NCBI GenBank assembly: GCA_963664705.1
Contig: OY761556.1
Location: 160,001-224,000 of the forward strand
DNA from: Acidobacteriota bacterium
Lineage (GTDB): Bacteria; Acidobacteriota; UBA6911
Reading direction: 5' to 3'
DNA: 64,000 nt
Part shown: positions 1 to 17,370 of the stretch, piece by piece
Position numbering within the stretch: position 1 is the first letter of the stretch
Layout of the letters: every line of letters starts with the position of its first letter
Translations under genes and position numbers: made by a program
Notes under the pieces: generated by a model
Seen by the model: the letters and a program-made list of their open reading frames with translations, nothing else
Databases searched by the model: none
Told to the model about the DNA's origin: nothing

Positions 1-1049
1 TTTCGCAAAAGATAGGCAAAGATCGGAGCCCCGATGATTGCGGTCAGAATCCCGATGGGGATTTCGGTTTCCATCGCCGTCCTGGCAATGAGATCGACGC
101 TTACAAGATAAATGGCGCCGATGAGTGCGGACACCGGCAGCAGATACTTGTTGTCCGCGCCGACGAGTATTCGGCCAATATGCGGAATCACCAGTCCCAC
201 CCATCCGATAACCCCGCTGATGCAGACAGCCGCGGCCGAAATCAGCGTCGCGGAAATGATAATGATGCCGCGGATCTGGCCCGTGTTGACGCCAAGAGCG
301 CGCGCATCTTCTTCCCCCATCGTCAGAAGATTGATTCGCCAGCGGATGAGATATAAGGCAACGATACCGGCCACGATTATTGGCCCCACCACTGCGATAT
401 CTCTGTTTGAGGCGTTGTTCAGCGATCCCAATAACCAGAATACGATCGAAGGCATCTGGTTGACCGGGTCCGCGATGTATTTCATCAGGGATGTAGCTGC
501 CGAAAAGAGCGCTCCGATAATGATTCCCGCGAGAACCAGCATCAAAACGGGCGTGCTGCGATAGGTTCGGCTCAACGCATAGGTCAGGAATACGGCAGCC
601 AGTCCAAAGACGAACGAAAGCAATTGGACCATGAAGACGTTGCCGAAGAAAAGGATGCCGATAGCGGCTCCGAATCCGGCCCCGGCCGATACTCCCAGGA
701 TATGAGGAGAAACGAGCGGATTCCGGAACAGCCCTTGAAACGAGGCTCCGGAAATGGAGAGACCTGCGCCAATCAGCAGGCCTGCCAGGAGACGGGGCAA
801 CCGTACATCGATAACCACGGATTCCAATGTCGCCGGCCAGTCAGCCTGCAATGTTGAGATGCGGGAAACCAGGATCTTGAGGATCAGTCCCGGCCGAATG
901 TGCATCTGCCCCGATATCAGGGAAACAATGCAGATGGCGAAAACCGCTGCGACAAGAAATAGCTGCAGTTTTCGCGGCTCGAAGAGATGTTCTCCGCGGG
1001 CTGGATTCACGCCCGCTGGAGTTGCGTGCTGCTGCGACGCCGGGCTCAT
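1..1049 (-). CDS. FecCD/BtuC-family ABC permease (3' end runs off the window)
   Basis: Absent from the ORF track because it has no stop in the window. Manual minus-strand translation from ATG 1049 gives VRLPR, FQGLFRNPLVSP, GWVGLVIPH and EIPIGILTAIIGAP. ATGA overlap with the upstream SBP stop. Confidence 0.93.
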   Translation of the reverse strand, partial: MSPASQQHATPAGVNPARGEHLFEPRKLQLFLVAAVFAICIVSLISGQMHIRPGLILKILVSRISTLQADWPATLESVVIDVRLPRLLAGLLIGAGLSISGASFQGLFRNPLVSPHILGVSAGAGFGAAIGILFFGNVFMVQLLSFVFGLAAVFLTYALSRTYRSTPVLMLVLAGIIIGALFSAATSLMKYIADPVNQMPSIVFWLLGSLNNASNRDIAVVGPIIVAGIVALYLIRWRINLLTMGEEDARALGVNTGQIRGIIIISATLISAAAVCISGVIGWVGLVIPHIGRILVGADNKYLLPVSALIGAIYLVSVDLIARTAMETEIPIGILTAIIGAPIFAYLLR

Positions 1050-2122
1050 TTCTTGGGACCGGGTCCGAAGGCAACGGCGTATCTGGCCGTCAGGATGGAC
1101 TGCGCTTGCTCGTCGTTCAAGTTAAAGGACATGATTTCGCCGTAAAACTTTTTTACCTCCTGAACCATATCGATATCTTTGAAGAGTTCCGGATAGGCGG
1201 TCTTTGCAAGCCACAGAGGATGAAGCACGGCCGATTCCGCAGTCGGCCTGTCCATGATAAACACGCCGACCGGTTGCTTGTATACCGCCCTGTTTCTGAC
1301 CGCATTAATGCTCTTCCATTTTGGATCGTTGTAGATGTCGGCCGGCGATCCGAAATCGATAACCAGTATGTCCGGATTCCAGCCCAGAACCTTTTCCATC
1401 GAGACTTCGGCCAGGCCTATATGCAGCCCTTCTTTCATGCCGCTCGATCGAATGGATTCCGCCGCATTCCGGCAGCCGGCCAGTTCAAAATGCTGCTGCA
1501 TGAAGGTGTCGCCACCCAGGGTAACGAGGTGATTGGCGCTGTAGCCGTTGAAGACAAGTTTGCGCTGGTTCTTGGCCAGTTTATCCGTGCGTGATTTGAC
1601 GAGATCGATCGTTTTTTGAAGATACGCCACATACTTTTCGGCCCGCGGTTCCTTCTGGAAGATTCGGCCGTAAAAGCGTATTTCCTCTTTTACCGCATCG
1701 AAAGTCTGACTCATCGAGCTTCCGAGGTATGCGACAGGAATGCGCGTCTTTTTTTCCACGATGGATCCATCAAGGTCTCCGGCAATGACAAGTTGGGGAT
1801 CGGTTGAAATAAGCTCTTCCACGTTGACCTGGCCGCTGGTGGTCCGGGGCGTTGCCAGATTCTTCACACTCGGGTCCATCTGGTTGACGAGTTCTGAGGT
1901 GGTCAGCGATTTTGTGACGGCGCACAGCTGTCCGCGCGCGCCCAGGATATAGGCGATCTGACCGGTCGGTCCGCCCAAGAGAGCCACCCTTTTCAAGGGA
2001 TCCGGCACCTGAACCTTCCGTCCCATCATATCGGTAATGGTTCGTGTTTTGTCCGCTCCGAAAGCAGTGATAAGGATGGTGCCGGCAATCGCGATCAGAA
2101 TGATGTTTCGATTGTGTTTCAA
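1046..2122 (-). CDS. FecB/BtuF-like (TroA superfamily) ABC substrate-binding protein
   Basis: Signal peptide, ITDMMGRKV, NVEELISTDPQLV, WNPDIL, AVRNRAVY, LWLAKTAYPELF. TTG start. Confidence 0.9.
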   Translation of the reverse strand: MKHNRNIILIAIAGTILITAFGADKTRTITDMMGRKVQVPDPLKRVALLGGPTGQIAYILGARGQLCAVTKSLTTSELVNQMDPSVKNLATPRTTSGQVNVEELISTDPQLVIAGDLDGSIVEKKTRIPVAYLGSSMSQTFDAVKEEIRFYGRIFQKEPRAEKYVAYLQKTIDLVKSRTDKLAKNQRKLVFNGYSANHLVTLGGDTFMQQHFELAGCRNAAESIRSSGMKEGLHIGLAEVSMEKVLGWNPDILVIDFGSPADIYNDPKWKSINAVRNRAVYKQPVGVFIMDRPTAESAVLHPLWLAKTAYPELFKDIDMVQEVKKFYGEIMSFNLNDEQAQSILTARYAVAFGPGPKK

Positions 2123-2334
2123 GGTTTACGCTCCTGCAGATTTCTTTCCGAAAACCGTACCTGATACCGGCGCGGATTTTGCTCGTCGCTCCCCGTTCCT
2201 TCGAAGGAAGTCACTGTAGCATGTTATTTTTCGTGCCTGAAAGAAATACTTTGTCTGATAATGTTCGTATTTTCAGCGCAAGGCGCAGATTGAATCATAA
2301 ATAGCATCAGGCCGGAAACGGCTGGGAGACAAGG

Positions 2335-3534
2335 ATGAAGAAAGGCAATGTTACGATAGCTTTGCTAAGCCTGATGTTGGCTGCGGGCTTGATAATTCTG
2401 ACAGGTTCTGCCCAGGAAAAGATTAAATCCAGGGCATATGTGGGCCATGAAAACGATCGGGATGTTCAGAACTTCGTGCAGCAATATCCGAAGACTGTGG
2501 GGACAAGACTGGATGACTGTCAGACCTGTCATCGCAGCGGCGCATCAGGCACGGATACGGAGCGGGAGTATAGCCCGTGCGGATACTGTCATTTACTTCA
2601 ATATCCAAACTCGAAATACAAAACCGGCGTACCGAAGAGTTTTGAGGATACCCTCAATGCCTTTGGCCTGGCCTATAAGAAGGAAGGCCGGACTGCCAAG
2701 GCTCTCGCCAACCTGGGTAATGCCGATTCTGATGGTGACGGCTTTGCCAACGCGAAGGAAATTGCGGAACTCCGGTATCCCGGCGATGCGGGTAGCCGCC
2801 CGGGCCAGCCGATCGCGCCCATCAAAACTCTGAATTGGGGCGATATTTCAAAGCTTCCTCGCCAAAGTCAATTCATGCTGATGAATACAACTTCCGAGCC
2901 ATTTGACGATTATGCAAGCTATGGTGGTGTTCGAGTCAAGGACCTGCTGGAAGCGGCGCATATCGATTTGAAGGGATCGACGGGCATCACGGTTTTCGCC
3001 CCGGATGGATACAGCGTCGACTACTCGCTGGATGATGTGATGGGGCCTTTCCCAAAGCCATATTTTTATGCGGCACCCGGAAGCATTCAGGATAAGGAAA
3101 AGGCATTTGTCAAATACCCGGAATCGCTGCCCTCAGGGGTACAGGACGGGAAAGAGATTCCTGCGGTGCCATGGCTTCTGATCGCGTTTGAGAGGGACGG
3201 GAAGCCGCTGGACAGTGCGCAGTATGAAAAAGGGACCGGGCGGCTTGCCGGTGAAGGGCCCTATCGCCTGATCAAGCCACAAAGAGATTTGACTGCGGGC
3301 GACCCGTCCAAACCGGGACGTCCGGATCGATCTGTAAAGTCCAAGGTCTTCGGAGATGGGTGGGATTTTTCGAAGGCGATTGATCACAATGCCGGGTCGT
3401 GCATTCGCGGGGCAACGGCGATTCGCATTAATCCCATGCCTTCCGGCTTTGAGGAATATGACTGGAAAAATGGGTGGCCCCTGGTCGCCGGGCGACAGAT
3501 CGTCATTTTTGGCAAGGGCGTTCCCAGGAAGTAA
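2335..3534 (+). CDS. Exported diheme c-type cytochrome with a C-terminal sulfite-oxidase Moco-domain-like region (GEGP-motif diheme protein)
   Basis: Signal peptide; CQTCH and CGYCH heme motifs; DSDGDG Ca-type loop; YGGVRVKDLL, APDGYS, AFERDGKPL, GEGPYRL. Confidence 0.8.
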   Translation: MKKGNVTIALLSLMLAAGLIILTGSAQEKIKSRAYVGHENDRDVQNFVQQYPKTVGTRLDDCQTCHRSGASGTDTEREYSPCGYCHLLQYPNSKYKTGVPKSFEDTLNAFGLAYKKEGRTAKALANLGNADSDGDGFANAKEIAELRYPGDAGSRPGQPIAPIKTLNWGDISKLPRQSQFMLMNTTSEPFDDYASYGGVRVKDLLEAAHIDLKGSTGITVFAPDGYSVDYSLDDVMGPFPKPYFYAAPGSIQDKEKAFVKYPESLPSGVQDGKEIPAVPWLLIAFERDGKPLDSAQYEKGTGRLAGEGPYRLIKPQRDLTAGDPSKPGRPDRSVKSKVFGDGWDFSKAIDHNAGSCIRGATAIRINPMPSGFEEYDWKNGWPLVAGRQIVIFGKGVPRK

Positions 3535-3544
3535 CAAACTGGGA

Positions 3545-3730: not shown

Positions 3731-4810
3731 ATGCGCTTTTTCAAAGTAGCGGTAATTTTTTCCGTCGTGGTTTGTTGTGCTTTGAACGCTCTTGCCGAAA
3801 ACAAACCACTTGCGATTCGCGATGCCGCCGGACGTGTGGTTAAGCTCTCGCGGTTGCCCCAAAGGATTGTTGTCATTGGGCGCATCCCGTTTATGACGCT
3901 GCATCTGTTGTACGCGTTTCCGGAGGGGCGCCAGCGTTTTGTGGCCAGCGAAAGAAAGGGCTCCAGTACTCCCAGTGACTTCCTGCCTCTGGTGGATCCG
4001 GCATTTGCCCGCAAACCTGTACTGGCTCCGGGCCCCAACGTCGAGGAAATTGCCAGCCTCAATCCTGACATTGTCCTGCTGAAAGGTACTTCGGTCGACA
4101 AAGCCAGCGAGTCTTTGGAAAAGATCGGGATCCCAACCTTTTACCTTGCGTTGGAGACTCCGGATCAATTCCTTCAGGATGTGACAAATCTCGGGCTCAT
4201 TCTCGGGAACACTAAAAGAGCCGAGGAGATCCGGGGCTTTTACCAGGTACGCATGGAGCGGATGCAAAAAAGACTGGCCGGCGTTTCAGATCAGAAAAAG
4301 CCGCGCGTGCTCCTTGTGGAGTATAGCAATCGGGGGAACAAAGTTGCCGTTCAGGTTCCTTCGAGAACATGGATGCAAACTCAGCAGGTTCAAATGGCGG
4401 GCGGGTATCCTGTCTGGCTTGAGGCGGTTCAAGGGACAGAAGGCTATTCCATTGTCAATATTGAACAGATTGCACGATGGAACCCGGAACAGATCTTTGT
4501 TGTCGTCTGGTACCTGTTGGATCCGGCCCAGATTATTCGCGGGATGAAAACCGACCCGCAATGGTCAGCGCTCAAGGCGGTTGCGAATGCCCAAGTCTAT
4601 GGGTTCCCGACCGATATTGTTGGCTGGGATACAGCCGATGTGCGCTGGATTTTGGGCGCGGAGTGGCTTGCCACCCGTGTTCACCCCACGCGCTTCAAGG
4701 ATATCGACATGAAGGCGGAGATTATGGCGCTCTTCGGCCAGTTATTTGGAATGAGCCGTGCAGCCATCGAGTCCGGCATACTTCCCCAGGTAAAGATGGA
4801 TGTCCACTAA
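3731..4810 (+). CDS. FecB/BtuF-like ABC substrate-binding protein
   Basis: True start MRFFKVAV after GGAGGG RBS; signal peptide; RDAAGRVV, NVEEIASLNPD, EQIARWNPE. Confidence 0.9.
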   Translation: MRFFKVAVIFSVVVCCALNALAENKPLAIRDAAGRVVKLSRLPQRIVVIGRIPFMTLHLLYAFPEGRQRFVASERKGSSTPSDFLPLVDPAFARKPVLAPGPNVEEIASLNPDIVLLKGTSVDKASESLEKIGIPTFYLALETPDQFLQDVTNLGLILGNTKRAEEIRGFYQVRMERMQKRLAGVSDQKKPRVLLVEYSNRGNKVAVQVPSRTWMQTQQVQMAGGYPVWLEAVQGTEGYSIVNIEQIARWNPEQIFVVVWYLLDPAQIIRGMKTDPQWSALKAVANAQVYGFPTDIVGWDTADVRWILGAEWLATRVHPTRFKDIDMKAEIMALFGQLFGMSRAAIESGILPQVKMDVH

Positions 4811-5816
4811 AGACATGCCCGGTTCAGGAGAACGCGAAGCCCTGGCAAGAGTCTCCTGCATTGCATGCCTGCTCCTGGCCATATTTATTCTTTCGGTTTT
4901 CATCGGACGCTATCCCGGACCTTACTTCACAAATCCGGCAGTATTGGGCGAAGATTCGCTTGCCAGGCGACTTCTGCTCAATTTGAGGTTGCCGCGCGTG
5001 ATCATGGCAATGCTGGTCGGCATGGTTCTCTCCGCATCCGGCACAGTTTTCCAGATGGTATTTCGAAACCCGCTTGTTGATTCAGGGTTTCTTGGCGTCT
5101 CCGCGGGAGCATCCTTTGGCGCTTCCCTGGCGATTGTACTGCTGGGAGGCACGACGTGGACTGTGCAGAGTTGTGCCGCGCTGTTCGGCTTGATGGGATT
5201 GGCTTGTTCTTACTTCCTGGGTACAAAGATCCGCTTTGGCGACTGGGTGTTACGCCTGCTTTTATCGGGGATCGCGGTTTCAGCAGTCTATACGTCGGGA
5301 ACCGGGCTGCTCAAATACCTGGCTGATCCGCTGAAAGAGCTTCCGGATGTTACCTTCTGGCTGCTGGGCGGAATTTGGGGGATTACCTGGAAGGATCTGT
5401 TTCAAGTTCTACCCGTGGCCATTCCCTGCCTGGTTGTTCTCTATCTGTTGCGCTGGCGGTTGAATCTGCTGTCGATGCGGGATGAGACGGCATTTTCCTT
5501 GGGCGTGGCGGCTGGACGCGAAAGGATGATTCTGCTGCTCGCGGCAGTGATCTCCACCACCGCCATGGTTTCAAAGGCCGGGCTGATAGCATGGGTAGGC
5601 TTGATCGTTCCGCACCTTGCACGGCGCTGGCTCGGCTCGGATGCCCAGCGCTCTCTCCCTGGTTCAATGGCCATGGGCGGCTTGTTTGTATTGCTTTGCG
5701 ATGATGTTGCCCGCACTCTTTTGCCGGGCGAAATACCCCTCGGCATTTTGTCATCGGCCGTTGGCGCGGCCGTCTTTGTCGCCCTCATGCTCAGACGGGA
5801 CTGGAGGGCACGTTGA
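4800..5816 (+). CDS. FecCD-family ABC permease
   Basis: LRLPR, FRNPLV, WVGLIVPH, GEIPLGI; multiple TM segments. Confidence 0.93.
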   Translation: MSTKDMPGSGEREALARVSCIACLLLAIFILSVFIGRYPGPYFTNPAVLGEDSLARRLLLNLRLPRVIMAMLVGMVLSASGTVFQMVFRNPLVDSGFLGVSAGASFGASLAIVLLGGTTWTVQSCAALFGLMGLACSYFLGTKIRFGDWVLRLLLSGIAVSAVYTSGTGLLKYLADPLKELPDVTFWLLGGIWGITWKDLFQVLPVAIPCLVVLYLLRWRLNLLSMRDETAFSLGVAAGRERMILLLAAVISTTAMVSKAGLIAWVGLIVPHLARRWLGSDAQRSLPGSMAMGGLFVLLCDDVARTLLPGEIPLGILSSAVGAAVFVALMLRRDWRAR

Positions 5817-6649
5817 TGAACCGAGAATGCCCGGTTGTCAGTCTGGAAAGAGTTTCTTTCCGATATGCTCCTTCCGATCCGCTTGTCCTGGCAGATGTCC
5901 ATGTTGCGTTGCTCAAGCGCTCGATCACGGCGCTGCTCGGACCCAATGGTTCAGGGAAGAGTACGCTGCTGCATCTGATATTAGGTTTGCTGACTCCTGT
6001 CCAGGGCCAAATATGTCTTATGGGGCGTCCTCTTCAGAAATACAGCCGGAGAGAGTGCAGCAAGATTCTCGGCCTGGTTCCCCAGGACGAACAGGTGGCC
6101 TTCGATCTGAGCGTTCTCGAATATGTATTGCTCGGCAGGGCCCCTTATCTCAATCTGCTGGATAGACCGGGCGGAAAGGATCATCGCATTGCACGCGAGG
6201 CTCTGGCGACCGTCGGTTTAGCGGCGCTGCAGAATCGGCTGGTCCCTTCATTGAGCGGAGGGGAGCGTCAACTGGCGACTGTAGCACGGGCGCTGGCGCA
6301 GGAGACCGAAGTCCTGCTTCTTGACGAGCCCACATCTCATCTGGATCTCGGAAATGCAAGACGCATCCTGGCAGGGCTCCGCGCGCTGAAGGCTTCCGGT
6401 AAAACAATTGTCCTGACAACCCACGATCCCAATGCCGCAGCGGCGATAGCGGATCACGTTATTTTGCTTCGCGGTGGGCAGGTGCTGTCTTCAGGAACCA
6501 CCGAAGAGGTTATGACATCGGAGCAGCTCAGCGCTGCCTATGGAGTCAATGTTGAGGTGATGCAGGTGCACGACAGAAGGTGGGTTTTGACCCACGCCTC
6601 GCCCAATGACCTGCGGTCCGACTTTGAATGTATTCAGGAGACGAACTAA
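5813..6649 (+). CDS. FecE-like ABC ATPase
   Basis: GPNGSGKST, LSGGERQ, LLLDEPTSHLD, H-loop TTHD. Confidence 0.95.
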   Translation: MMNRECPVVSLERVSFRYAPSDPLVLADVHVALLKRSITALLGPNGSGKSTLLHLILGLLTPVQGQICLMGRPLQKYSRRECSKILGLVPQDEQVAFDLSVLEYVLLGRAPYLNLLDRPGGKDHRIAREALATVGLAALQNRLVPSLSGGERQLATVARALAQETEVLLLDEPTSHLDLGNARRILAGLRALKASGKTIVLTTHDPNAAAAIADHVILLRGGQVLSSGTTEEVMTSEQLSAAYGVNVEVMQVHDRRWVLTHASPNDLRSDFECIQETN

Positions 6650-7491
6650 TGCAAAAGGCACTGGATTACCTTGAACTCTGGCGCGAATTGTCAACGCGGC
6701 AGGAATCGGCGTGGCTTTCCAAAGGATCGAAGGGTTCCGAAGACATGTGGCGGAATAGAGCAGAGTTTTTTAACACGGAAGTCAAGAGACGGTGGGCTAC
6801 CCCGGATTCCAGTCGCGATTTTGTCACTGCCCAATTGCGTGCCAACCCGGAGTGGACAGCCCTGGATATTGGGGGAGGTACGGGTGCATGGGCCGTCCTG
6901 ATGGCGCAGTGCGCACGACGCGTCACCGTGGTTGAACCCTCGCCGGCGATGCTGGATGTTCTGCGCAGAAATGTATCGGAGGCAAATGTCTCCAATATCG
7001 ATGTTCTGGAAAGCAAGTGGCCGGATGCTCAGGTTAAGAAACACGATCTGGTTTTGTGTTCGCAGGCAATGTTCGGGTTCGCAGATTTTGCCGGATTCAT
7101 CCACAGCGTTGAATCGGTAACGCGCAAACTGTGTGTTTTGATCATGCGTTCTCCAAGTCCGACGGACCTCCTTTGTGCGGCCACAGGGCATATCTATGGA
7201 CAGCCCTACGATAGTCCCAATTTTCAGGTTGGCTACAACGCCCTGCTGCAGATGGATATCTTTCCAAACGTGCAGATGGAAAACACCGGCCTATGGGATC
7301 CATGGATCAGTCAGAACCTGGATGAAGCCTTTGGCGAGGCGAAGAGTAGATTGGGCCTCCAGGGAGAGACTCGGTACGATGACTATTTACAGGATCTGCT
7401 GAGGCAAAATCTCAAAGAACGGGATGGCCGGCTGGAGTGGCCTCGCAGCACCCGCTCCGCCCTCCTTTATTGGACCCCCTCCAAGTCATGA
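6649..7491 (+). CDS. Class I SAM-dependent methyltransferase
   Basis: ALDIGGGTG, VEPSPAM, DLVLCS. ATG overlaps the ATPase stop (TAATG). Confidence 0.88.
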   Translation: MQKALDYLELWRELSTRQESAWLSKGSKGSEDMWRNRAEFFNTEVKRRWATPDSSRDFVTAQLRANPEWTALDIGGGTGAWAVLMAQCARRVTVVEPSPAMLDVLRRNVSEANVSNIDVLESKWPDAQVKKHDLVLCSQAMFGFADFAGFIHSVESVTRKLCVLIMRSPSPTDLLCAATGHIYGQPYDSPNFQVGYNALLQMDIFPNVQMENTGLWDPWISQNLDEAFGEAKSRLGLQGETRYDDYLQDLLRQNLKERDGRLEWPRSTRSALLYWTPSKS

Positions 7492-7555: not shown

Positions 7556-7590
7556 TTGACAAATAGTAATGTTTTGTCATTATTTGTAAT
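7556..7590 (+). promoter_or_regulatory. Putative promoter of the TonB receptor gene with 10-bp-phased operator repeats
   Basis: TTGACA 7556-7561; TAGTAAT, TTGTCAT, TTGTAAT at 7564, 7574, 7584. Confidence 0.6.
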
Positions 7591-7609: not shown

Positions 7610-10033
7610 ATGCAAGCGAATAGAGTGAAAGTATACGTGTGTGTTCTGATGCTCTCCCTGCTGGTCCTTGGGACCTCGGCATTGCAGGCGCAGACGAAGC
7701 AGTTGCTTCAATGGTCGAGTGACCTGGCGTACCTGAAGGGTGCTTCCAGTGATGCGCTGAAAGACAGCAGCGCGGCCATCGTACAAATCCGAACCGGAGT
7801 TGATCTCTGGTTGAAGATGCATCCCAATGCAAAAATTGCATTAAAAGCTGCACCTGCAGAGCCCTGGAGTGCTGATGAATTGAAAAACCAGGTAAACCTG
7901 CTGTCGGAGGCGATTGAATCCATTCTGAAAGAGGATCCCAGTCGTCCTTTTGAAATGGGCGTGACGATGGTAGCGGTTACTGCCGAGGCCTCGCCATTGT
8001 CTCCGATTGCGGACAGCTTTGATCGCGGTGAAATCGTCAACCGGCAGGCGCTTACGGCGGCGGCCGCACTGGATTACCTCCCGGGCGTTGCCATTGATCA
8101 TGCGACTAATGGACGGAACGAATCATCGATTCGGTTGCGCGGATTCACCTCGAAAGGGCAGGTGCCTTTCTACATTGATGGCATTCCCGTCACCATGCCC
8201 TACGATGGGACCATCGATTTCGGCCGATTCCTTTCCAATGATATTGCAGAGATGCAGGTATCCAAGGGCTTTTCCTCTCCGCTGCTTGGCGCCAACGCAC
8301 TGGGTGGTTCCGTAAACCTTGTAACAAGGCAGCCGGAAAAGAAGATCCAGGGCGATGTGGCGATGGGGACCGGATCCGGCAATGCACTGCTTACCTCGGT
8401 CAATCTGGGATCGCGATGGCAGAAGTTCTACCTTCAGGGGACATTTGACTGGCTGCAAAGCGACTTTGTGCCCCTGTCCGGTAATTTCACGCCGAACAAT
8501 TTCCAGGCTACCAACGAGCGCAACAATTCAGATACGCGCGATGCAAAATACAGCGGTCGCTTGGCCTGGACGCCGAAGGGTGAAGACCAGTATGTGTTCA
8601 GCTGGATCAACCAGAAAGGCGAAAAGGGCGTCCCTCTTTACGCCGGACCGAACTCCGCTGCCACATTTAATGCATTTGCCTATCGGCGATGGCCTTATTG
8701 GAACAAGACCGGCTACTACCTGATCACAAATACGGGTTTGGGGGAGTCGAGTTCCATCAAGTTCCGGGCCTATTACGATGAATTCCCGAACGTAATGGAT
8801 TTTTACGACAACGCCACTTTTTCCACGATGGCGAAGACGTCCTCCAACCGCAGTTTTTACAATGATCACAGCGCCGGAGGGTCTGCGGAGTTCACCACGC
8901 GCTCGCTGAAGCGGAATCTCATCAGCGCGTCCTTTGTTCTCAGAGACGATAATCACCGGGAGCGGCTTGAATATCCTGCACTCTCGCCTTTCCCCTTCAT
9001 TTCACCGTCTTTGCTCAATAGATCGCAAACGTACTCGATCGGCTTTCAGGATGTAATTACGCTCACGTCACGACTGCGTGCCACATTCGGCTTCAGTGCA
9101 GATTACCTGAAGGGGATGCAGATCCAGAAACTCAACAGCGCGAATACCGGATTAATCTCGGTCACCTGTCAGGATAGTCCCCAGAATACGTCCTTCACCG
9201 GTTGCACGGCGCGCATATGGAATCACAACCCGCAGGCTTCTCTTTCTTACACGATTAGTTCCCGCGATACGGTGTTCTTTACCGTTTCCGATCGAGGTCG
9301 CTTCCCATTGCTGAAAGAAAGCTATTCCTATAGCTTGGGAAAGGGGATTCCGAATCCCGATTTGAAGCCGGAGCACAATACGAGTCTGAATTTTGGTTAT
9401 TCCCATGCATTCCCTGGGAAGACCGTGATGCAGGTTGAGTACTTCTACAATCGCCTGCGTAATGCAATTCAATCCGTATACATAAAGGATCCCGGTGGTA
9501 CCACGGCGCCGCTTTGTTCCAATACCGGGACGCAGGCCGGGTATTGCAGTCAGAACGTAAACGTTGCGAAGGAAACGCATCAGGGATATGAGGTCAGCCT
9601 GCGCAGCGCTCCTTTGCCGAGGCTGACATTCGATGTGAACTACAGCTACCTGAATCGTACGCTGCTTTATGATTTCGGCAGCCATGTCGACATAAACCAG
9701 GTGCTGACGTCGGTGCAAATCCTGCCGACTTATCCCAAAAACAAGGTGATCTTCAACGCCACGCTGCGGTTGCCCCACGACATCCTGGCCGTTGGAGCGT
9801 ATCGGTATGAAGGCGGCATCATCCTTCAGGATACGACTTACAAAACTTCACCTCAAAATCTGCCTTTTGCTACTTCCTATGGCACGGTGGATATTGGAGG
9901 CGTGATTCCGGTTCATGCCGGTTTCACCGCCCAGGTTGGGTTGAAGAATCTGTTTGATCGCAACTTTTACTATACAGCCGGCTTCCCCGAAGCAGGCCGT
10001 ACCTGGTATCTCAACGGGCGCTTCAAGTTTTAG
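7610..10033 (+). CDS. TonB-dependent outer-membrane receptor
   Basis: AGAGGAG RBS, signal peptide, plug motifs (LPGV, IRLRG, YIDGIP, GANALGGSVNLVT), NPDLKPE, KNLFDRNF, C-terminal F. Confidence 0.95.
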   Translation: MQANRVKVYVCVLMLSLLVLGTSALQAQTKQLLQWSSDLAYLKGASSDALKDSSAAIVQIRTGVDLWLKMHPNAKIALKAAPAEPWSADELKNQVNLLSEAIESILKEDPSRPFEMGVTMVAVTAEASPLSPIADSFDRGEIVNRQALTAAAALDYLPGVAIDHATNGRNESSIRLRGFTSKGQVPFYIDGIPVTMPYDGTIDFGRFLSNDIAEMQVSKGFSSPLLGANALGGSVNLVTRQPEKKIQGDVAMGTGSGNALLTSVNLGSRWQKFYLQGTFDWLQSDFVPLSGNFTPNNFQATNERNNSDTRDAKYSGRLAWTPKGEDQYVFSWINQKGEKGVPLYAGPNSAATFNAFAYRRWPYWNKTGYYLITNTGLGESSSIKFRAYYDEFPNVMDFYDNATFSTMAKTSSNRSFYNDHSAGGSAEFTTRSLKRNLISASFVLRDDNHRERLEYPALSPFPFISPSLLNRSQTYSIGFQDVITLTSRLRATFGFSADYLKGMQIQKLNSANTGLISVTCQDSPQNTSFTGCTARIWNHNPQASLSYTISSRDTVFFTVSDRGRFPLLKESYSYSLGKGIPNPDLKPEHNTSLNFGYSHAFPGKTVMQVEYFYNRLRNAIQSVYIKDPGGTTAPLCSNTGTQAGYCSQNVNVAKETHQGYEVSLRSAPLPRLTFDVNYSYLNRTLLYDFGSHVDINQVLTSVQILPTYPKNKVIFNATLRLPHDILAVGAYRYEGGIILQDTTYKTSPQNLPFATSYGTVDIGGVIPVHAGFTAQVGLKNLFDRNFYYTAGFPEAGRTWYLNGRFKF

Positions 10034-10113: not shown

Positions 10114-11130
10114 GTGAAACGAATCGCTCTGATTGCATGGGCTGCCTTTATGGCAGTGATCGGCGGATGCAACTACCGTACCGTGCAGCATGATGAGACC
10201 ATCACGGTTACCGATCAATTGGGGCGAACAGTTGCGGTTCCCCGGCACATGACGCGTGTTGCGGCGCTTTACCATTTTTCCGGAAGGATTGCTTTTGCAC
10301 TGGGGCAGCGGGACCGGTTGGTTGAACAGAGCCTAAGCGGAAAAGAAGCAAAAGCCATGGCATCGATTGATGCAAAATTCGCGGCGATGCCGCGCATTGC
10401 GGATGGACATGGAATCAACTTTGAAAGCCTGCTGGCGCTCAAGCCGCAATGCGCCATCGTATATGCTTCCTTTAGCCGATCGCAGATGGCTCAGCTAGAA
10501 AATGCGGGTATCAAAGTCATCGCGGTCAAAGGGGAAACTTTTGAAGAGAGCCTCGTGGCTGTCCGGCTGATTGCCAGAGTGCTTGATTGTGAGGAAAAGG
10601 GGGAGGAATACATCAGGTCCTGCGAAAGCCTGATGAGTCTCGTGGCTGATCGCATCCGAAATATTCCCCTGCATCAGCGGCTTCGTGTGGTCTTTACCGG
10701 CCCCAAGAGTCTGTACACGGTAGCCACTGGAGAAATGCTTCAGAACCAGGTCCTGGAGACGGCAGGTGCAATCAATGTTGCTTCTTCTCTGAAAGGTTTC
10801 TGGAATGATGTTTCTCCCGAGCAGATTGCGGCATGGAACCCCGATGTCATCCTGCTTGGGTCATCGCTGGATACATATGCGGCGGATGAGGTGCTTCGAA
10901 GTTCGCAATTCCAGTCCATCAAGGCGGTCCGGAATAAGCGCGTGTATGTTTTTCCCTCCAATGTCGGCTGGTGGGATTATCCCGCCCCTCATTGCGCGCT
11001 CGGCGCGCTTTGGACTGCCAGGATTCTATATCCTGATCACTTCAAAGATGTGGACATGCTTCAGGTTGCCGATAACTTTTATCTCAAATATCTGGGCCAC
11101 TCATTCACATCTATGGGCGGAAAGCTTTGA
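10114..11130 (+). CDS. FecB/BtuF-like ABC substrate-binding lipoprotein
   Basis: Lipobox-like IGGC, VTDQLGRTV, EQIAAWNPD, AVRNKRVY, WWDYP. Confidence 0.9.
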   Translation: MKRIALIAWAAFMAVIGGCNYRTVQHDETITVTDQLGRTVAVPRHMTRVAALYHFSGRIAFALGQRDRLVEQSLSGKEAKAMASIDAKFAAMPRIADGHGINFESLLALKPQCAIVYASFSRSQMAQLENAGIKVIAVKGETFEESLVAVRLIARVLDCEEKGEEYIRSCESLMSLVADRIRNIPLHQRLRVVFTGPKSLYTVATGEMLQNQVLETAGAINVASSLKGFWNDVSPEQIAAWNPDVILLGSSLDTYAADEVLRSSQFQSIKAVRNKRVYVFPSNVGWWDYPAPHCALGALWTARILYPDHFKDVDMLQVADNFYLKYLGHSFTSMGGKL

Positions 11131-11181: not shown

Positions 11182-12207
11182 ATGAAAACGCATCACAGGT
11201 TTTTTCTTTTCCTGTTTTTCCTTCTGAGTTTCCTGGTTGCGCTTTCTGTCGGGCGCTATCCCATCGGCCTGACTGGTATCGCTCGCATTCTACTTTCCAA
11301 TCTTGGGATCTGGGGCATTGCTGCACCTGATGCGGATACGCTCATGATTTTCTGGAATGTGCGGCTGCCAAGAATAATTCTGAGTCTGACGATCGGGAGC
11401 GGCATATCTATTGCCGGGGTCGTTTTTCAGGCTTTATTCCGGAATCCCCTTGCTGCGCCTGAAATCCTGGGAGTGACGGCCGGATCCTGTTTCGGCGCGG
11501 CAATGGCTATCATGTTTCTTTCGGGACTGGCCTGGGTGATCCAAAGCAGCGCTTTTGTCTTCGGGATTATTGCGGTTTCTCTTGCCTACCTGCTGTCTTC
11601 ACGCAGTTGGGACCGGAGCGCCTCGGTTCTTGTAATATCAGGAATTGTTGTTTCCGCTTTTTTCCAGGCCGGCCTGTCGTTTCTGATGTATATCGCCAAT
11701 CCATACGATCAGTTGGCGCAAATCATATTCTGGATAATGGGTAGTCTGAATACCGCGTCATGGGCAAAAGTAGAGACCACGTTGCCAGTCGTTTTGATCG
11801 GTTCGGTTTTGGTTGTGGTATTCAGTTGGCGGCTCAATATCATGACCCAGGATGAAGAGCATGCACTGTCGCTTGGAGTCGATGTTGTCCGCTGGCGGCT
11901 GTTTTATGTGGTTGTATGCACATTGATAGTTGGCGCATCGGTAGCCGCGGTTGGGACCATTGCTTGGGTGGGGCTTATCGTTCCTCATATCGGGCGCTAC
12001 CTGTCCGGCATGGATCACCGGAGACTGATTCCCACTGCCGCATTTCTTGGCGGAGCATTTCTTCTGTTAATGGATACGCTTGCCAGGACTATCCTGCCCT
12101 CGGAGGTCCCCATCAGCATTCTGACATCGGTCATCGGCGCGCCATTTCTGGGATATCTTGTTTTGAGCCGGAGAAGCATGGGAGTCTCCAGTGAGCCTGG
12201 CAATTGA
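11182..12207 (+). CDS. FecCD-family ABC permease
   Basis: VRLPR, FRNPLA, WVGLIVPH, EVPISILT. Confidence 0.93.
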   Translation: MKTHHRFFLFLFFLLSFLVALSVGRYPIGLTGIARILLSNLGIWGIAAPDADTLMIFWNVRLPRIILSLTIGSGISIAGVVFQALFRNPLAAPEILGVTAGSCFGAAMAIMFLSGLAWVIQSSAFVFGIIAVSLAYLLSSRSWDRSASVLVISGIVVSAFFQAGLSFLMYIANPYDQLAQIIFWIMGSLNTASWAKVETTLPVVLIGSVLVVVFSWRLNIMTQDEEHALSLGVDVVRWRLFYVVVCTLIVGASVAAVGTIAWVGLIVPHIGRYLSGMDHRRLIPTAAFLGGAFLLLMDTLARTILPSEVPISILTSVIGAPFLGYLVLSRRSMGVSSEPGN

Positions 12208-12970
12208 GAATCTGAGTGCGGGATATAGCGGAATCGAAGTTCTGAAAGGTATCAGCCTGAGTGTCGGGCAGGGAAGTATCTGTGCGCTGATGGGGCGCAA
12301 CGGAAGCGGCAAGACAACCCTGCTGCGGTGCATCAATGCGGTTTTGAAGCCGATGCAGGGCCGGGTTGTGGTCAATGGCATGGATGTTCGTGAGATGTCT
12401 CGAATGGAAGTCGCCCGGTCCATCAGCCTGGTTCCCCAGGGCATCTACAGTGCTTTTTCATTTTCCTGCCTGGAAATGATTTTGATGGGTTCTGCCTCCC
12501 GCCTGAAAGCATGGTCTGCCCCGGGAAAACTCGAGAAGGAAAAGGCCAGGGAGGTGTTGAATGAGGTTGGGATCGATGCGCTGGCGCATCGATCGTTCAA
12601 TCATCTCTCAGGGGGAGAGCGTCAAATGGTGATGCTGGCAAGAGCCTTGTTTCAGGATGCGCCCGTTATGCTTCTCGACGAGCCGAATTCCCACCTCGAT
12701 TTCTCTAATCAGCACAGGGTCATGCAGCTTACGCGGGAACTTGTGAAGAAGCGTGGTGTCACAGCGCTCCTCTCACTCCATGACCCCAATTTGACTCTCT
12801 ATTATTGCGATGAAGTCGCCATGCTGAGGGAAGGCAAGATTACCGCCAGCGGATCTGCCGGTGAAGTAATGAAAGATTCTATTTTGCAGCAAACTCTGGG
12901 CGAAAATATCCAGACTGATGTTACGATAAGCGGCCTGCCGGTTGTGACACCCAGGCTTTCTATAAAGTAA
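12191..12970 (+). CDS. FecE-like ABC ATPase
   Basis: GRNGSGKTT, LSGGERQ, LLDEPNSHLD. Confidence 0.95.
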   Translation: MSLAIENLSAGYSGIEVLKGISLSVGQGSICALMGRNGSGKTTLLRCINAVLKPMQGRVVVNGMDVREMSRMEVARSISLVPQGIYSAFSFSCLEMILMGSASRLKAWSAPGKLEKEKAREVLNEVGIDALAHRSFNHLSGGERQMVMLARALFQDAPVMLLDEPNSHLDFSNQHRVMQLTRELVKKRGVTALLSLHDPNLTLYYCDEVAMLREGKITASGSAGEVMKDSILQQTLGENIQTDVTISGLPVVTPRLSIK

Positions 12971-12978: not shown

Positions 12979-13986
12979 ATGAAATGCAATTATTGCGAGT
13001 GGGGTTGTGAGCTAAGCGCGCAGTCTTTTGGCGTTTGCCAAATGTATTGTGAGGACCATGGAGTAATCACGGGGCGCTTCCCGAATCGATGGTCCTATTC
13101 TGTTTCGCGTGTCGAAGCGCTCCCTTTTTATCATGCTTATCCAGGAAGCCGTTCTCTGACTATCGGGACAAGCGGCTGCAATTTTAGCTGCCGATATTGT
13201 TCGAACGCCTATATCGCCCGGCGCGATCCTGCCACGGTTGAGGAAAACACCTACTCCATGACGCCGGAAGATCTTGTGCGCATGGCGCAAAAGCTCAATT
13301 GCCATAACATCGTATTCAATGTCAATGAGCCTACCGTTTCTCTGCCCGAGTTGATCGAGCTGAGAAAGCATGCCCAGAAGGCAGGCCTTCCCCTGGGATG
13401 TCTGACTAATGCTTACGGTACTGAGGAGTCGACAGAGATTCTCGCGTCGGTCTTTGATTTTCTGAACATCGGCCTGAAGGGATTTACCTCCGCATTTCAT
13501 CGAGAGTTTATCGGGATCAGGAACATCGAGCCGGTTTTGCGCAACATCCGAAGGCTGGCCGGACTTCGGCATGTCGAGGTGACGACTCCGGTCATCCAGG
13601 GAGTCAACGATGGGGACCTTGATGGGATTGCCGATTTCTTGTCAGGAATCGATGGGGAAATACCCTGGCATGTCTTCCGACTCCTCCCGGAGCATGAAAT
13701 GAAGGATGCCGACTATCCCAGCATTGAGGCAATAAGCCGGGCTCTTCAGGCTTGTCGGGAAAAACTCGTCTATATCTACTTTCACAATTTTGTGGGATCC
13801 GATTGGGTGAATACCGGCTGCCCGCGGTGCCACAAGGAGGTGATTGAACGTTTCAGCCTGGGATGCGGCGGCGACAAGCTCGATTCGTTTAATTGCTCTG
13901 GCAGCGCGTGTCCCGGTTGTGGATACGAAATCAGAATATTAGGCGGGTATGTTCCTCCCCTCGGTGAAAGGAAAGCTGTTTTATGA
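12979..13986 (+). CDS. Radical SAM protein (PflA/AmmeMemoRadiSam-like architecture)
   Basis: CNFSCRYC radical SAM motif; N-terminal CxxCxxxC..GxC; C-terminal CPRC/CPGC. Confidence 0.9.
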   Translation: MKCNYCEWGCELSAQSFGVCQMYCEDHGVITGRFPNRWSYSVSRVEALPFYHAYPGSRSLTIGTSGCNFSCRYCSNAYIARRDPATVEENTYSMTPEDLVRMAQKLNCHNIVFNVNEPTVSLPELIELRKHAQKAGLPLGCLTNAYGTEESTEILASVFDFLNIGLKGFTSAFHREFIGIRNIEPVLRNIRRLAGLRHVEVTTPVIQGVNDGDLDGIADFLSGIDGEIPWHVFRLLPEHEMKDADYPSIEAISRALQACREKLVYIYFHNFVGSDWVNTGCPRCHKEVIERFSLGCGGDKLDSFNCSGSACPGCGYEIRILGGYVPPLGERKAVL

Positions 13987-15116
13987 GCCTGGCGATAGTG
14001 GATGCAAGGGAATGGCAAAACCTGCTCGACCTCAGAACCGGGAAGAAGGTTCAGGATGATCATCCTCAGACTCGGATGGTTCGTGATCTGCTGGCACGGC
14101 ACGCTTATCCGGGCGATGTCAATGTGGAGAGCAATCGATGGGTAACCGATGTTGCGCTGGATCTGATTCGTGAGTATTGCCCGGATCTTGCGTTTCTCTT
14201 CTACTCACACCAGTTTTTTGCGGGACGATACACGCCGATGAATGAGGAGCAGCGGCGTGCGATGATCGAAAGTGTCTTTGGCGAAGTGAGCCGGTTTGTT
14301 CGTGAGTCGGGTTATACCCCGGTCATCGTGGGTTCTGGCGACATGGTGGAGGTTGCCGGCGAGATCGACCTGAGCAAAGCGGATGGCACCGCCATCTCCA
14401 GTCACTGGTCCGCGCGGTATGCCGGGTTGCACCATGCCAGTGCGCGAGATCTTGATCATGTCGCCTCTCTTCCTCAGATTGAGAAAATTGTGCGACGGGA
14501 GGAATGGATTGATCTGATGGGGAATGCCGGGCACCGCGTGGATCGCATTCCGGAGTATCTGCTGGTTGCCCGGGAAGGTTGGACCTTCGCTACCACCGGC
14601 GTTCCTCTTCGCAAAGCCCTGAGGGTTCCTGGTGCCGCATACTCAATTCCAGTAGCCACCTCCCTGGGCGAACCGGCCACAATCCTGGATATTCGAAGAT
14701 TGATTGAACTCAACCTTAAGACGCACAAGATTGCACTCATTATTCTGGAAGGGTTGGGTGTGAGGGATTTTGTGCTCCCGCATGCAGCCTGCACAAACAG
14801 CGTTGATTGGTTCTATTACGAACCAGGAGACGGTCAGTATCTGAGCATGATGACAGGCGAACACCAGGTCTTTGCCTATCCGACTGGATATCAATATCAC
14901 GACGAAAACGATGCGAAACGGGATTTTCCGTTTTCGGGATATTTTCTTGATATTCCTGAGCACACGCTCGGCAGTGACTTTTCCGGAAAGAGTGTTGCCG
15001 TGGGAAACCACAGCATGTTTGTCCATATGGTGTTTGGGGCGGATATCTGTATCGAGTGCTTTGCCCGGAATCTATATAATCAGGGCTGTCTTGGGGTTAT
15101 CCACAGTTTCAAATGA
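13983..15116 (+). CDS. Hypothetical protein with weak alkaline-phosphatase/phosphodiesterase-superfamily resemblance
   Basis: 377-aa ORF coupled by ATGA overlaps at both ends; PDLAFLFY, VIVGSGDM and IALIILEGLG segments. Confidence 0.6.
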   Translation: MSLAIVDAREWQNLLDLRTGKKVQDDHPQTRMVRDLLARHAYPGDVNVESNRWVTDVALDLIREYCPDLAFLFYSHQFFAGRYTPMNEEQRRAMIESVFGEVSRFVRESGYTPVIVGSGDMVEVAGEIDLSKADGTAISSHWSARYAGLHHASARDLDHVASLPQIEKIVRREEWIDLMGNAGHRVDRIPEYLLVAREGWTFATTGVPLRKALRVPGAAYSIPVATSLGEPATILDIRRLIELNLKTHKIALIILEGLGVRDFVLPHAACTNSVDWFYYEPGDGQYLSMMTGEHQVFAYPTGYQYHDENDAKRDFPFSGYFLDIPEHTLGSDFSGKSVAVGNHSMFVHMVFGADICIECFARNLYNQGCLGVIHSFK

Positions 15117-15997
15117 GGAGAGACGTGGCGAATCGAAGTCGGATTTTGGATAAAACGCTGCAGGAACTGCGAGTTCTTTACAAAATGTACCCGCTGGAGC
15201 CCGGAATTTTCGTGAAAGCCGGTCTCAAGCAGGGCTGGAATGTTGTGATTGGAACCCAGGGGCAGTGCGGCATGGCCATGAGTTTTGCCGGCCGCGATGA
15301 TGTTTTCGGAAAGCAGCAGATCGATTGCGATCGGCTCAGGGCATTCATTGGACAAGACCTCTTCCTGCTGGCCGAAACCTACCTTCAGTCGCAGAGCTGG
15401 CATGAGCGCTCCGTTGGCGTGGCCGCGCTTGTGGCACTTTCTCAACCGCTGATCACGCCGGATGCCCTGAGAGCCAGAGGATTTGATGTTCCTTCGGGAG
15501 ACACCGATTTTGCGAGTTGCATACAACCCGATGACATTGTCGCGGTCGTTGGCTATGGCGGAGGCATCAAACGACTGCTTGGGAAGTCCAGAGAGCTTCA
15601 TGTTACAGACCTGCGCCCGCGGCAGGAATTCCAGGCCACACTTGTCAGTGACAAAGGGGTTGGCTTTACGCCTGAGGAGGTTTTTATTCACCCGGAATCG
15701 GATAATGAACCGGTTTTACGCAAGGCAACGGCTGTTGCCATTACCGGATCCTCGCTGGTGAATGGAACTTTTGATGAGCTGCTGGTTTATGCCCGGCGCG
15801 CCCGCCTGATTACGGTCTATGGAGCAAGCGCGGGCTTGATACCGGATGTGCTTCTTGCGGAGGGAGTGCATATGGTGCATTCATCGCGTATTTCCGATCC
15901 TGCGGCTTTCGAGCGGGGCATGATGCAGGACATGAATATGGAAGCCGTCATGCAGGGGACGCAAAAACAGCAGACGATTCGGCGAGACGCACATTGA
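15113..15997 (+). CDS. DUF364-like Rossmann-fold protein
   Basis: ERSVGVAAL..ALSQ, VAVVGY, ITGSSLVNGTFDELL, YGAS. Confidence 0.8.
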   Translation: MRRDVANRSRILDKTLQELRVLYKMYPLEPGIFVKAGLKQGWNVVIGTQGQCGMAMSFAGRDDVFGKQQIDCDRLRAFIGQDLFLLAETYLQSQSWHERSVGVAALVALSQPLITPDALRARGFDVPSGDTDFASCIQPDDIVAVVGYGGGIKRLLGKSRELHVTDLRPRQEFQATLVSDKGVGFTPEEVFIHPESDNEPVLRKATAVAITGSSLVNGTFDELLVYARRARLITVYGASAGLIPDVLLAEGVHMVHSSRISDPAAFERGMMQDMNMEAVMQGTQKQQTIRRDAH

Positions 15998-16031: not shown

Positions 16032-16700
16032 ATGAAACGCTCATTTGTTTTGCTTTGGTTTTTAGTTCCTTCATTGCTGGTGGCGCAGGATCATCCTGGC
16101 GCGAAGTCGAAGGCGGAAATCGAAAAGATGCATCAGGACCCGAAGGCATATATTGCCATGCTGGAAAATCCGCAACGTGATGCCGAACAAAAGCCGGAAG
16201 AGGTTCTCAAAGCCCTCGCAATCAAGCCGGGAGAGGCCATTGCCGATATCGGAGCAGGCTCGGGATACTTTGCCTTCAAGTTTGCCAGGCCCGTCGGAGA
16301 TGGCGGACATGTCTATGCTGTGGACATCAATAGTGACATGATTCTTTTTATGAACCGCAAGATCAGGGACATGAAGCTGAAGAACGTATCGACCATTCTC
16401 TCAGCGCCCGATGATCCATTGATTATCGACGGTTCCGTGAATCGCTTCTTTGTCTGCAATACATGGCACCATGTGCAAAACCGCATAGGCTACCTCGGCC
16501 TTATCAAAAAAGCTCTCAAGCCTGGCGGGCAGATTATCGTGATGGATTACAAGAAAGAACAATTGCCCGTGGGCCCGCCGCCTGAGATGAAGATGGCGCG
16601 TGAAGAAGTGCTGAAGGAAATGGAAGCGGGCGGATTCAAGCTGGAGAAGGAATATACATTTCTGCCCTATCAGTACTTTCTTATTTTTGCGGCAAAATAG
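16032..16700 (+). CDS. Class I SAM methyltransferase-fold protein with signal peptide
   Basis: IADIGAGSGYF, VYAVDI, LKPGG; hydrophobic N-terminus; AAGGAG RBS. Confidence 0.88.
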   Translation: MKRSFVLLWFLVPSLLVAQDHPGAKSKAEIEKMHQDPKAYIAMLENPQRDAEQKPEEVLKALAIKPGEAIADIGAGSGYFAFKFARPVGDGGHVYAVDINSDMILFMNRKIRDMKLKNVSTILSAPDDPLIIDGSVNRFFVCNTWHHVQNRIGYLGLIKKALKPGGQIIVMDYKKEQLPVGPPPEMKMAREEVLKEMEAGGFKLEKEYTFLPYQYFLIFAAK

Positions 16701-16731
16701 CGGCAATGGATAAGCGCCGCAGGTTGGGTTT

Positions 16732-17370
16732 ATGAAGATACGATATTGCATTGGCTTGTTTTTATTGCTGTTGCTGGTTCACTTGTGCTTTGCCGCCTAC
16801 GACGGGCCTCCCGATCTGGATAGGATCGAGAAGCGGATCAATGCTTATGTTCCGGACCGGCAATACCCGGATGACCCGTTTGTCCTCATCTGTGTCCGCG
16901 AGGCGCTTGCCGGAGGGCGGGAGAAGAATGGCGGGATCGGTGCCTGCCTGGTCGAGGAGGCAACGGGAAAAATAGTGGAGGTGGGACATAATCGCCAGTA
17001 TGAGCCCTACTTTCGCAGCGACCTTCATGCGGAAATGGACCTTCTGACCCGCTATGAAGAGAAGATCAAGGCGCGAAGAATCATGGATTCCAGCCTGCCC
17101 ACGGAGGTACAGCGAAAAATAGAGGGGATGGTGCTCTATACTTCTGTGGAGCCTTGTCCCATGTGCATGTCCCGTATTATCAATGCACGGCTCAAAAAAG
17201 CGCTTTATGCCGCTCCGGATCCATCGGGCGGAATGGCGCACAAAATTCAGGACCTGCCAACCTTCTGGCGGGAATTGGCTTCAGGGCGTGTGTATGAACC
17301 GGCCCGCTGTTCGCCGGAGCTGGTCGATATTGCAAAATCCCTTTTTCGTCCCATGGTAAAGACAAAATAA
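16732..17370 (+). CDS. Zn-dependent nucleoside/nucleobase deaminase family protein with signal peptide
   Basis: HAE and EPCPMC motifs. Confidence 0.88.
   Translation: MKIRYCIGLFLLLLLVHLCFAAYDGPPDLDRIEKRINAYVPDRQYPDDPFVLICVREALAGGREKNGGIGACLVEEATGKIVEVGHNRQYEPYFRSDLHAEMDLLTRYEEKIKARRIMDSSLPTEVQRKIEGMVLYTSVEPCPMCMSRIINARLKKALYAAPDPSGGMAHKIQDLPTFWRELASGRVYEPARCSPELVDIAKSLFRPMVKTK

Follow-up and report, generated by a model that had tools for sequence, protein, structure and literature searches.

A probable molybdenum and tungsten acquisition locus around a TonB-dependent receptor of the Acidobacteriota

Organization of the locus

The stretch of DNA analyzed here, referred to as the window in the following, comprises 64,000 nucleotides from an Acidobacteriota bacterium (lineage UBA6911; GenBank assembly GCA_963664705.1, contig OY761556.1, positions 160,001 to 224,000, forward strand), whose genome is a single contig of 6.9 Mb. 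Its first 17,370 positions encode a TonB-dependent receptor together with three sets of ATP-binding cassette (ABC) importer genes and a number of enzymes. An earlier, sequence-only reading had proposed that these genes import and process a chelated metal or a pterin-like cofactor under the control of molybdenum or tungsten (Mo/W). All genes listed in that reading were verified by Pfam and NCBIfam searches, among them three Peripla_BP_2 substrate-binding proteins (SBP1, SBP2 and SBP3) and three FecCD permeases; two ATPases lie inside the window and the third immediately to its left. Missing from the list was a protein of 377 residues without a Pfam match, encoded directly behind the radical SAM gene. 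The description of the import genes as one block had to be given up: they likely form three transcription units, and the locus continues leftward with a second receptor.

The first of these likely units runs leftward beyond the window edge and comprises SBP1, a class III binding protein (1046..2122, minus strand) whose relatives are operon-mates of a DUF364 gene, the permease perm0 (1..1049, minus strand), whose open reading frame reaches -18, and the ATPase just outside the window. The second likely unit runs rightward, as do all genes that follow here (plus strand). It begins with a GEGP protein (2335..3534), which has a signal peptide, two CxxCH hemes and a domain of the sulfite-oxidase fold without a Mo-binding cysteine, and continues with the class III binding protein SBP3 (3731..4810), the FecCD permease perm1 (4800..5816), an ABC ATPase (5813..6649) and MT1, a class I SAM methyltransferase (6628..7491).

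The third unit, which likely has its own promoter, starts with the receptor of the PrrA-like clade (7610..10033, 7610 being its true start). It is followed by SBP2, a lipoprotein-type class III binding protein (10114..11130), the FecCD permease perm2 (11182..12207), an ABC ATPase (12191..12970), a radical SAM enzyme nearest to the AmmeMemoRadiSam and glycyl-radical activase families, albeit below their cut-offs (12979..13986), the 377-residue protein, which resembles nucleotide pyrophosphatases/phosphodiesterases (ENPP-like; 13983..15116), a DUF364/DUF4213 putative metal-chelation protein (15113..15997), the methyltransferase MT2 (16032..16700), found behind GEGP genes in relatives, and a zinc-dependent deaminase of the nucleobase/nucleoside family (16732..17370), found immediately upstream of the receptor in several relatives. 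MT2 and the deaminase have N-termini that resemble signal peptides; these, like the signal peptide of GEGP, were judged by eye.

Promoters and regulation

Across the TTGACA -35 box of the receptor promoter, TTGT(C/T/A)AT-like units recur every 10 bp (motif A; 7556..7595, plus strand). A matrix was built from twelve distinct orthologous receptor promoters, all from sources other than the host genome, and used to rank the positions of this genome with the -35 box removed. The receptor promoter came first (score 28.1), followed by window position 24558 (23.3; site 24530..24558), window position 37610 (21.1; site 37582..37610, between two xanthine-oxidase-like Mo enzyme genes), position C1:2602693 of the host contig (20.1), which adjoins a xanthine-oxidase-like gene, an AOR gene and a GEGP paralogue, and window position 31047 (19.0; site 31019..31047, upstream of an aldehyde dehydrogenase gene); the three window sites are on the minus strand. 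Ranks two to five are all promoters of the island or of Mo/W enzymes. Six positions scored above 18, compared with none in three block-shuffled genomes; below 18, an AOR promoter is mixed with unrelated sites. The phased repeat pointed out in the sequence-only reading is thus real and exceeds chance. That it is common to the promoters of the adjoining aor/taoR/tup island is correct for positions 24558, 31047 and 37610 and incorrect for the aorFeS/taoR spacer and the region upstream of tupA, which score 0.9 and -2.9. The SBP1/GEGP spacer carries only a degenerate version (2221..2270, plus strand; score 2.3), though one that is conserved and kept in two related loci (L033 and L049), and clear sites are found at the GEGP promoters of relatives.

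Behind the second-best site, its strand has no open reading frame. From the site, some 180 hairpin-rich bases extend up to a two-way terminator (24356-24558, minus strand) and could represent a regulated small RNA; they have no Rfam match, and in relatives only motif A itself recurs.

Motif A is likely bound by TaoR. The host genome encodes two regulators that combine HTH_17 with PBP_like, and one of them lies beside the aor and tup genes (22838..23755, plus strand). This is the architecture of TaoR (PMC11980592), which has been described as tungstate-dependent in vivo in Desulfovibrio alaskensis (PMC12327845). Of 27 taoR genes taken from relatives, 17 are preceded by a related phased repeat. 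These repeats alone, with an anchor picked by eye, gave a matrix that ranks the receptor promoter within the top 24 positions on both strands. De novo Gibbs sampling on the taoR upstream regions had yielded a G+C-rich artefact of the background model, and the anchored matrix was used instead. Since motif A covers the core promoter of the receptor, its position suggests repression.

Signals for other regulators are missing. Rfam searches of window positions 1-40000 returned neither a riboswitch for the molybdenum or tungsten cofactor (Moco, Wco) nor one for B12, and no ModE, Fur or NikR box was found in the window promoters tested. In four spacers, the best Fur-like match reached 9-11 of 18 positions of a deltaproteobacterial consensus, which may differ in Acidobacteriota.

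Relatives of the receptor and their neighborhoods

The receptor is present in 25 of 29 genomes of the same genus, as is taoR, and in 8 of 401 genomes of the phylum. While a scan of genome contigs with this single protein gave only 2 loci, a metagenome scan identified 488 relatives among 549 candidates, the best 80 of which were retained. The pooled set of 124 loci contained 99 distinct ones, of which 62 span at least 10 kb. As core Mo/W markers we counted ModA, WtpA, TupA/B, MoeA, PBP_like regulators, AOR, XDH, XdhC, MoaC/D, MobA and Mop. Such a gene occurs in 35 of the 62 loci, and Mo/W genes including sulfite-oxidase-fold partners occur in 43. For comparison, a core marker is found in 10-15% of random windows of the host genome, which is itself rich in tungsten-related genes, and within 9 kb of none of its 11 other receptors. 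These neighborhoods support the earlier proposal of a link to Mo/W.

Parts of the gene order are shared as well. The run GEGP-receptor-SBP2-ABC-radical SAM-377-residue protein-GEGP-MT2 recurs in L159 (where the permease was not recovered), L172, L175 and L194. In L194 and in L001 (9983-12417 and 17621-18821), receptor and ENPP-like genes appear frameshifted, possibly owing to sequencing errors.

The promoters of the relatives fall under different regulators. Among 69 upstream regions, 14 contain motif A with a score above 20; twelve of these are training sequences, and none of the 14 loci has an XRE-PBP regulator gene in the fetched DNA. All 15 loci with an XRE-PBP gene carry a different motif (scores 9-24, with overlap between training and scored sequences). 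In five loci (L044, L050, L076, L079 and L091), an operon recurs opposite the receptor that encodes DUF364, FecCD, ATPase and binding proteins, a TrmO-like, a cysteine-desulfurase-like and a second TrmO-like protein, and an XRE-PBP regulator; this composition hints at sulfur chemistry on an imported metal species.

Distant receptors in Proteobacteria

Full-length relatives at 26-31% identity are found in Proteobacteria. The receptors of Escherichia coli and Pseudomonas aeruginosa match the two receptors of the window region best (E-values of 3e-67 to 1e-85; all other receptors follow at 1e-11 or above), the window receptor and the PrrA clade are reciprocal best matches, and RNE, WP and DxH motifs are common to both. 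In E. coli, the locus (L122) has the order binding protein-permease-ATPase-methyltransferase-modD-receptor. On the basis of its genes and its size and not of a name, we equate it with the prrA-modD-yc73-fepC cluster of uropathogenic and O157 strains, for which iron uptake has been proposed (PMC12928451, PMC1890555). In P. aeruginosa (L123, 7795-10426), the receptor is followed by a small exported protein of the sulfite-oxidase fold and lies beside moaA and narGHJI. We observed that this small protein has a cysteine in the hairpin region and that two ModE-like boxes are located at the receptor.

ModE-like boxes were scored against the E. coli consensus printed in PMC545781, with operon starts chosen by hand after a first box scan and significance estimated from 200 shuffles. 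A box precedes 9 of 10 distant loci and was equalled in at most 5 of the 200 shuffles. Its matches amount to 18 of 20 positions in E. coli (L122:3324-3351), 17 of 20 in P. aeruginosa and Methylorubrum, and 13-14 of 20 in six others; no ModE-like box was found at the tenth locus, that of Bartonella. The 18/20 match, immediately in front of the E. coli prrA-type cluster, suggests a locus for molybdenum there and not for iron. A placement of TonB receptors in a ModE regulon by Rodionov 2004 was not borne out by the available parts of the literature.

Receptor, binding proteins and partner proteins

The receptor falls below the cut-offs of all NCBIfam siderophore, heme and B12 receptor families (best 115.8 bits, against a cut-off of 316.85), and no solved structure is close to it. 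SBP2 has MolA (HI1472) as its nearest solved relative (E-value 3e-38), and in a pairwise alignment it retains one of four named pocket residues: Y301 is kept, while K221, R264 and Y114 are replaced by E, S and F. SBP1 and SBP3 are nearer to uncharacterized structures, and the subfamily of the binding proteins includes nickel- and iron-annotated members.

GEGP belongs to NF041762 (442 bits, cut-off 300), and its structural model (predicted local distance difference test score 86) contains a sulfite-oxidase fold at residues 160-371, which substantiates the Moco-domain-like region previously suspected in this di-heme protein. In structural comparisons, this domain of the model matches SorT, SoxC and PruR with Z-scores of 11.6-12.7 (SorT: Z 12.7, root-mean-square deviation 2.6, 122 residues aligned; PruR: Z 11.6, deviation 2.5, 121 residues aligned). 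No cysteine is available as a Mo ligand, since the four heme cysteines are the only invariant ones in 69 GEGP sequences. The tyrosine aligned to the pterin-stacking tyrosine of PruR is kept, and a GPYRL motif contains an invariant arginine; the corresponding arginine in enzymes of the sulfite oxidase family contacts the cofactor phosphate. As c-type cytochromes leave the cytoplasm by the Sec route, GEGP would meet any pterin outside the cytoplasm. PruR proteins are likewise exported and cysteine-less, and hold a pterin between a tyrosine and a tryptophan (PMC11194511, PMC13259868).

Similar partners accompany the receptor elsewhere. In five loci (L063, L067, L082, L087 and L100), the receptor is flanked by two separate genes, one for a di-heme protein of the MbnH family (TIGR04039, above cut-off) and one for a small protein of the sulfite-oxidase fold, a pairing that suggests the oxidation of something held by the fold. 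The window encodes such a small exported, cysteine-less sulfite-oxidase-fold protein next to taoR (23811..24353, plus strand), and its orthologues are found directly downstream of the receptor in relatives.

Of the enzymes, MT1 is 23% identical to the methyltransferase of the E. coli cluster (E-value 2e-7), whose best match in the whole host genome is an MT1 paralogue. The 377-residue protein, the model of which is of high quality (score 94), is fused to a radical SAM domain in 7 of 11 homologs scanned, which had been picked mainly for length out of 120 matches. It is found in 2 of 401 phylum genomes, and a search of plasmids gave no match. In L173, we observed the radical SAM/ENPP-like pair behind modABC instead.

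Further features of the host genome

The second receptor paralogue, located at window positions -7654 to -5285, is 45% identical to the first. It faces genes for a membrane protein and a TiaS-N-like (GIDDTD) protein (G000:C1:152346-156274), an arrangement that recurs in relatives; in other relatives, the paralogue lies behind a TupA-like protein in which GGMTMT replaces TTTS. Directly upstream of it, translations reveal an [FeFe]-hydrogenase cluster, a Rex-like regulator and two-component genes (G000:C1:135268-151768). Within the window, a second TupA-like protein (25234-26109) has ASTIG where the first has TTTS, and may therefore bind a different anion. Elsewhere, modABC lies together with genes for an XRE-PBP regulator, a cytochrome c7 and an exported protein resembling tetrapyrrole methylases (G000:C1:1139049-1144856); the latter two are found behind the receptor in relatives. 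The two AOR genes of the window gave 23 and 21 tblastn matches in the genome, which points to an unusually large family of tungsten enzymes. With 23 matches to one AOR gene alone, the Mo/W demand of the host is likely high, and the genome already carries both tupABC and modABC.

Interpretation

The function of the system as a whole is deduced here from sequence. We regard it as very probable that the receptor clade serves Mo/W acquisition, as this is the reading that best accounts for the gene neighborhoods, the three regulator-linked promoter motifs and the lack of Fur boxes, NikR boxes and riboswitches. Regulation by Mo/W rather than iron, as proposed earlier, is supported by these observations, including the lack of a B12 riboswitch.

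The nature of the cargo is a far more delicate question. We favor molybdenum or tungsten complexed by an organic ligand, to which we give about an even chance, because of the cysteine-less sulfite-oxidase-fold and di-heme proteins, the exported deaminase, the radical SAM/ENPP-like pair and the loss of MolA contacts. Among such ligands, the pterin of Moco or Wco or its breakdown products would be the most likely, if with a modest probability of its own; some other chelate seems somewhat less likely still. When the metal is short, TaoR would leave the repeat that is present over the spacer between the -35 and -10 boxes, so that the receptor could be synthesized and pull the metal-ligand complex through the outer membrane. 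There, the exported sulfite-oxidase fold found in GEGP may hold the pterin, the two hemes could oxidize the ligand and thereby free the oxyanion for the neighboring Tup/Mod importers, and the exported deaminase might alter the pterin ring. Import of the intact or partly stripped complex would then fall to the class III binding proteins and the FecCD permeases. In the cytoplasm, finally, the radical SAM enzyme and the ENPP-like protein, whose pairing recurs across loci, may act with a methyltransferase and DUF364 to cleave or cap the ligand and to take over the metal.

A number of observations speak against parts of this picture. No marker at all is found in 19 of the 62 loci, and because the loci are kin, the neighborhood counts do not amount to a statistical test; training and test loci of the motifs overlap in part, and with the matrix derived from taoR, the other sites of motif A reach only ranks 50 to 1467. 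No close ortholog of SBP3 (at least 45% identity), perm1 or the DUF364 protein of the block was found in the fetched loci, while in G207 and G167, GEGP lies beside tupABC/moeA with no receptor of the clade within the 20 kb fetched. In many relatives, the receptor is directly beside ModA, WtpA, TupA-like or Mop genes and FecBCD genes are lacking, which fits a free oxyanion. GEGP lacks the Pro-Trp motif of PruR and has Thr/Ser at the tryptophan and Asp at N102 (alignment with 7KOM), and the PruR site has been described as too short for Moco (PMC11194511, PMC13259868). The structural matches of the 377-residue protein to ENPP are weak (E-value 1.4e-3). The host encodes moaA and moaC, and therefore does not need an imported pterin; cofactor auxotrophy was ruled out accordingly, as all of 5 genomes passed the cut-off for moaC and 4 of them that for moaA. 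Moreover, MolBC-A imports free molybdate and tungstate through a FecCD permease (bioRxiv 10.64898/2026.10.15.759412). This weakens the premise of the sequence-only reading that FecCD systems carry chelates, which is incomplete, while its proposal of a chelate or metal-pterin cargo stays plausible.

The receptor might then be a high-affinity channel for free molybdate or tungstate, or for their thio-forms in sulfidic mud, with MolA-like binding proteins and with the enzymes as co-regulated passengers. This main alternative, which we consider possible and less probable than a ligand-bound cargo taken as a whole, draws on MolBC-A as a FecCD-type oxyanion importer and best solved match of SBP2, on regulators with PBP_like sensing domains, and on the many loci in which ModA, WtpA or TupA-like genes are operon partners of the receptor or Mop genes face it; in several loci, the receptor stands alone. 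It has to contend with the fact that SBP2 keeps only Y301 of the MolA pocket and that the cell already possesses tupABC and modABC, and it leaves the recurring di-heme and sulfite-oxidase-fold partners and the exported deaminase with no evident role in handling a bare ion.

The two remaining alternatives are less convincing. Iron, or another metal, could be imported under Mo/W control to equip Mo/W enzymes with their Fe-S clusters and hemes: iron is the proposed cargo of the E. coli cluster (PMC12928451, PMC1890555), ModE-controlled 'Fe ABC transporters' with a radical SAM gene have been read as iron uptake in Methanosarcina acetivorans (PMC12327845), and the binding-protein subfamily has nickel- and iron-annotated members. 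We find this improbable given the lack of Fur-like boxes in the four spacers, with the caveat on the consensus noted above, the receptor scores below every siderophore, heme and B12 cut-off, and the neighbors, which handle Mo/W. In addition, an operator on the promoter fits shut-off at plentiful Mo/W, opposite to what the synthesis of Mo/W enzymes would need. Still more improbable is the PruR-like uptake or sensing of metal-free pterins, in which Mo/W regulation would reflect the supply of pterin for cofactor synthesis. The PruR-like fold with its conserved tyrosine, the exported deaminase and the reported excretion and uptake of pterins by unknown routes (PMC11194511, PMC13259868) would be in line with it, but there is no diguanylate cyclase among the recurring neighbors examined, the Pro-Trp motif is missing, and additional pterin would hardly benefit a cell that lacks metal.

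Returning to ligand-bound Mo/W, its most far-reaching form would be a dedicated bacterial route for Moco/Wco salvage, which imports cofactor released by other cells. We put this forward as a speculative possibility. The clade, which has members in Acidobacteriota as well as in E. coli and P. aeruginosa, would have been wired independently to ModE, TaoR and XRE-PBP regulators. Its periplasmic di-heme/sulfite-oxidase-fold module might strip or shield the cofactor, and its radical SAM-pyrophosphatase pair might recycle it, each with similarly modest likelihood.

These proposals bear on two questions, namely by which route scarce Mo/W pass the outer membrane and whether the pterin cofactor is exchanged among bacteria. 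In the available parts of the literature searched, including a review (PMC11672702), there is no characterized Mo/W TonB receptor or bacterial Moco uptake, although earlier regulon predictions, with a ModE or TaoR site at clusters of this type, may exist. The clade offers named candidates in the culturable and non-pathogenic Methylorubrum, Azospirillum and Paracoccus, would reassign an E. coli island long labelled iron uptake, and points to a function for several families without names: the GEGP di-heme proteins, DUF364 and the radical SAM/ENPP-like pair.

Comparison with known systems

Copper-related TonB receptors have partners called MbnH and MbnP. An MbnH-family di-heme gene lies beside the receptor in some of our relatives as well, but the second partner there is a sulfite-oxidase-fold protein. 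GEGP shares this exported fold, the lack of a Mo-binding cysteine and the pterin-stacking tyrosine with PruR. It differs from PruR in the missing Pro-Trp motif, the Asp in place of N102, the invariant GPYRL arginine, the di-heme fusion and the linkage to a receptor, and no DcpA-type cyclase is found in the block or among the recurring neighbors examined. Unlike SorA, SorT and MsrP, it lacks the cysteine that binds Mo where the β-hairpin ends.

On the side of transport and regulation, MolBC-A of Haemophilus influenzae (HI1470-1472), a type II molybdate/tungstate importer, likewise combines a class III binding protein with a FecCD permease and an ATPase; K221, R264 and Y114 of MolA are not conserved in SBP2. 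The TaoR regulon of D. alaskensis resembles the locus in having an HTH_17 and PBP_like regulator near aor and tup genes, whereas the regulon inferred here would include an outer-membrane receptor. In M. acetivorans, a Mo regulator controls ABC importers annotated for Fe together with a radical SAM gene (ma1200-1197, ma1234-1224 and ma1204; PMC12327845). Compared by their description only, these operons differ in being archaeal, in lacking an outer-membrane receptor and in having been read by their authors as iron supply.

The closest counterpart is the E. coli prrA-modD-yc73-fepC cluster, with a receptor of the same clade and the same order of binding protein, permease, ATPase, methyltransferase and receptor. 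The sequence-only reading had recognized no characterized system of this composition; its core is of the type already described in E. coli, where iron has only been proposed as the cargo. The acidobacterial locus differs in that the host genome has no ModD match (tblastn with E. coli ModD at an E-value threshold of 1e-3) and that a TaoR-type site takes the place of the ModE box. It also has two more ABC sets, along with genes for di-heme/sulfite-oxidase-fold proteins, for radical SAM and ENPP-like enzymes, for DUF364 and for a deaminase. Its parts are of known kinds: metal uptake by TonB and FecCD systems, MolABC, TaoR, PruR and the prrA cluster.

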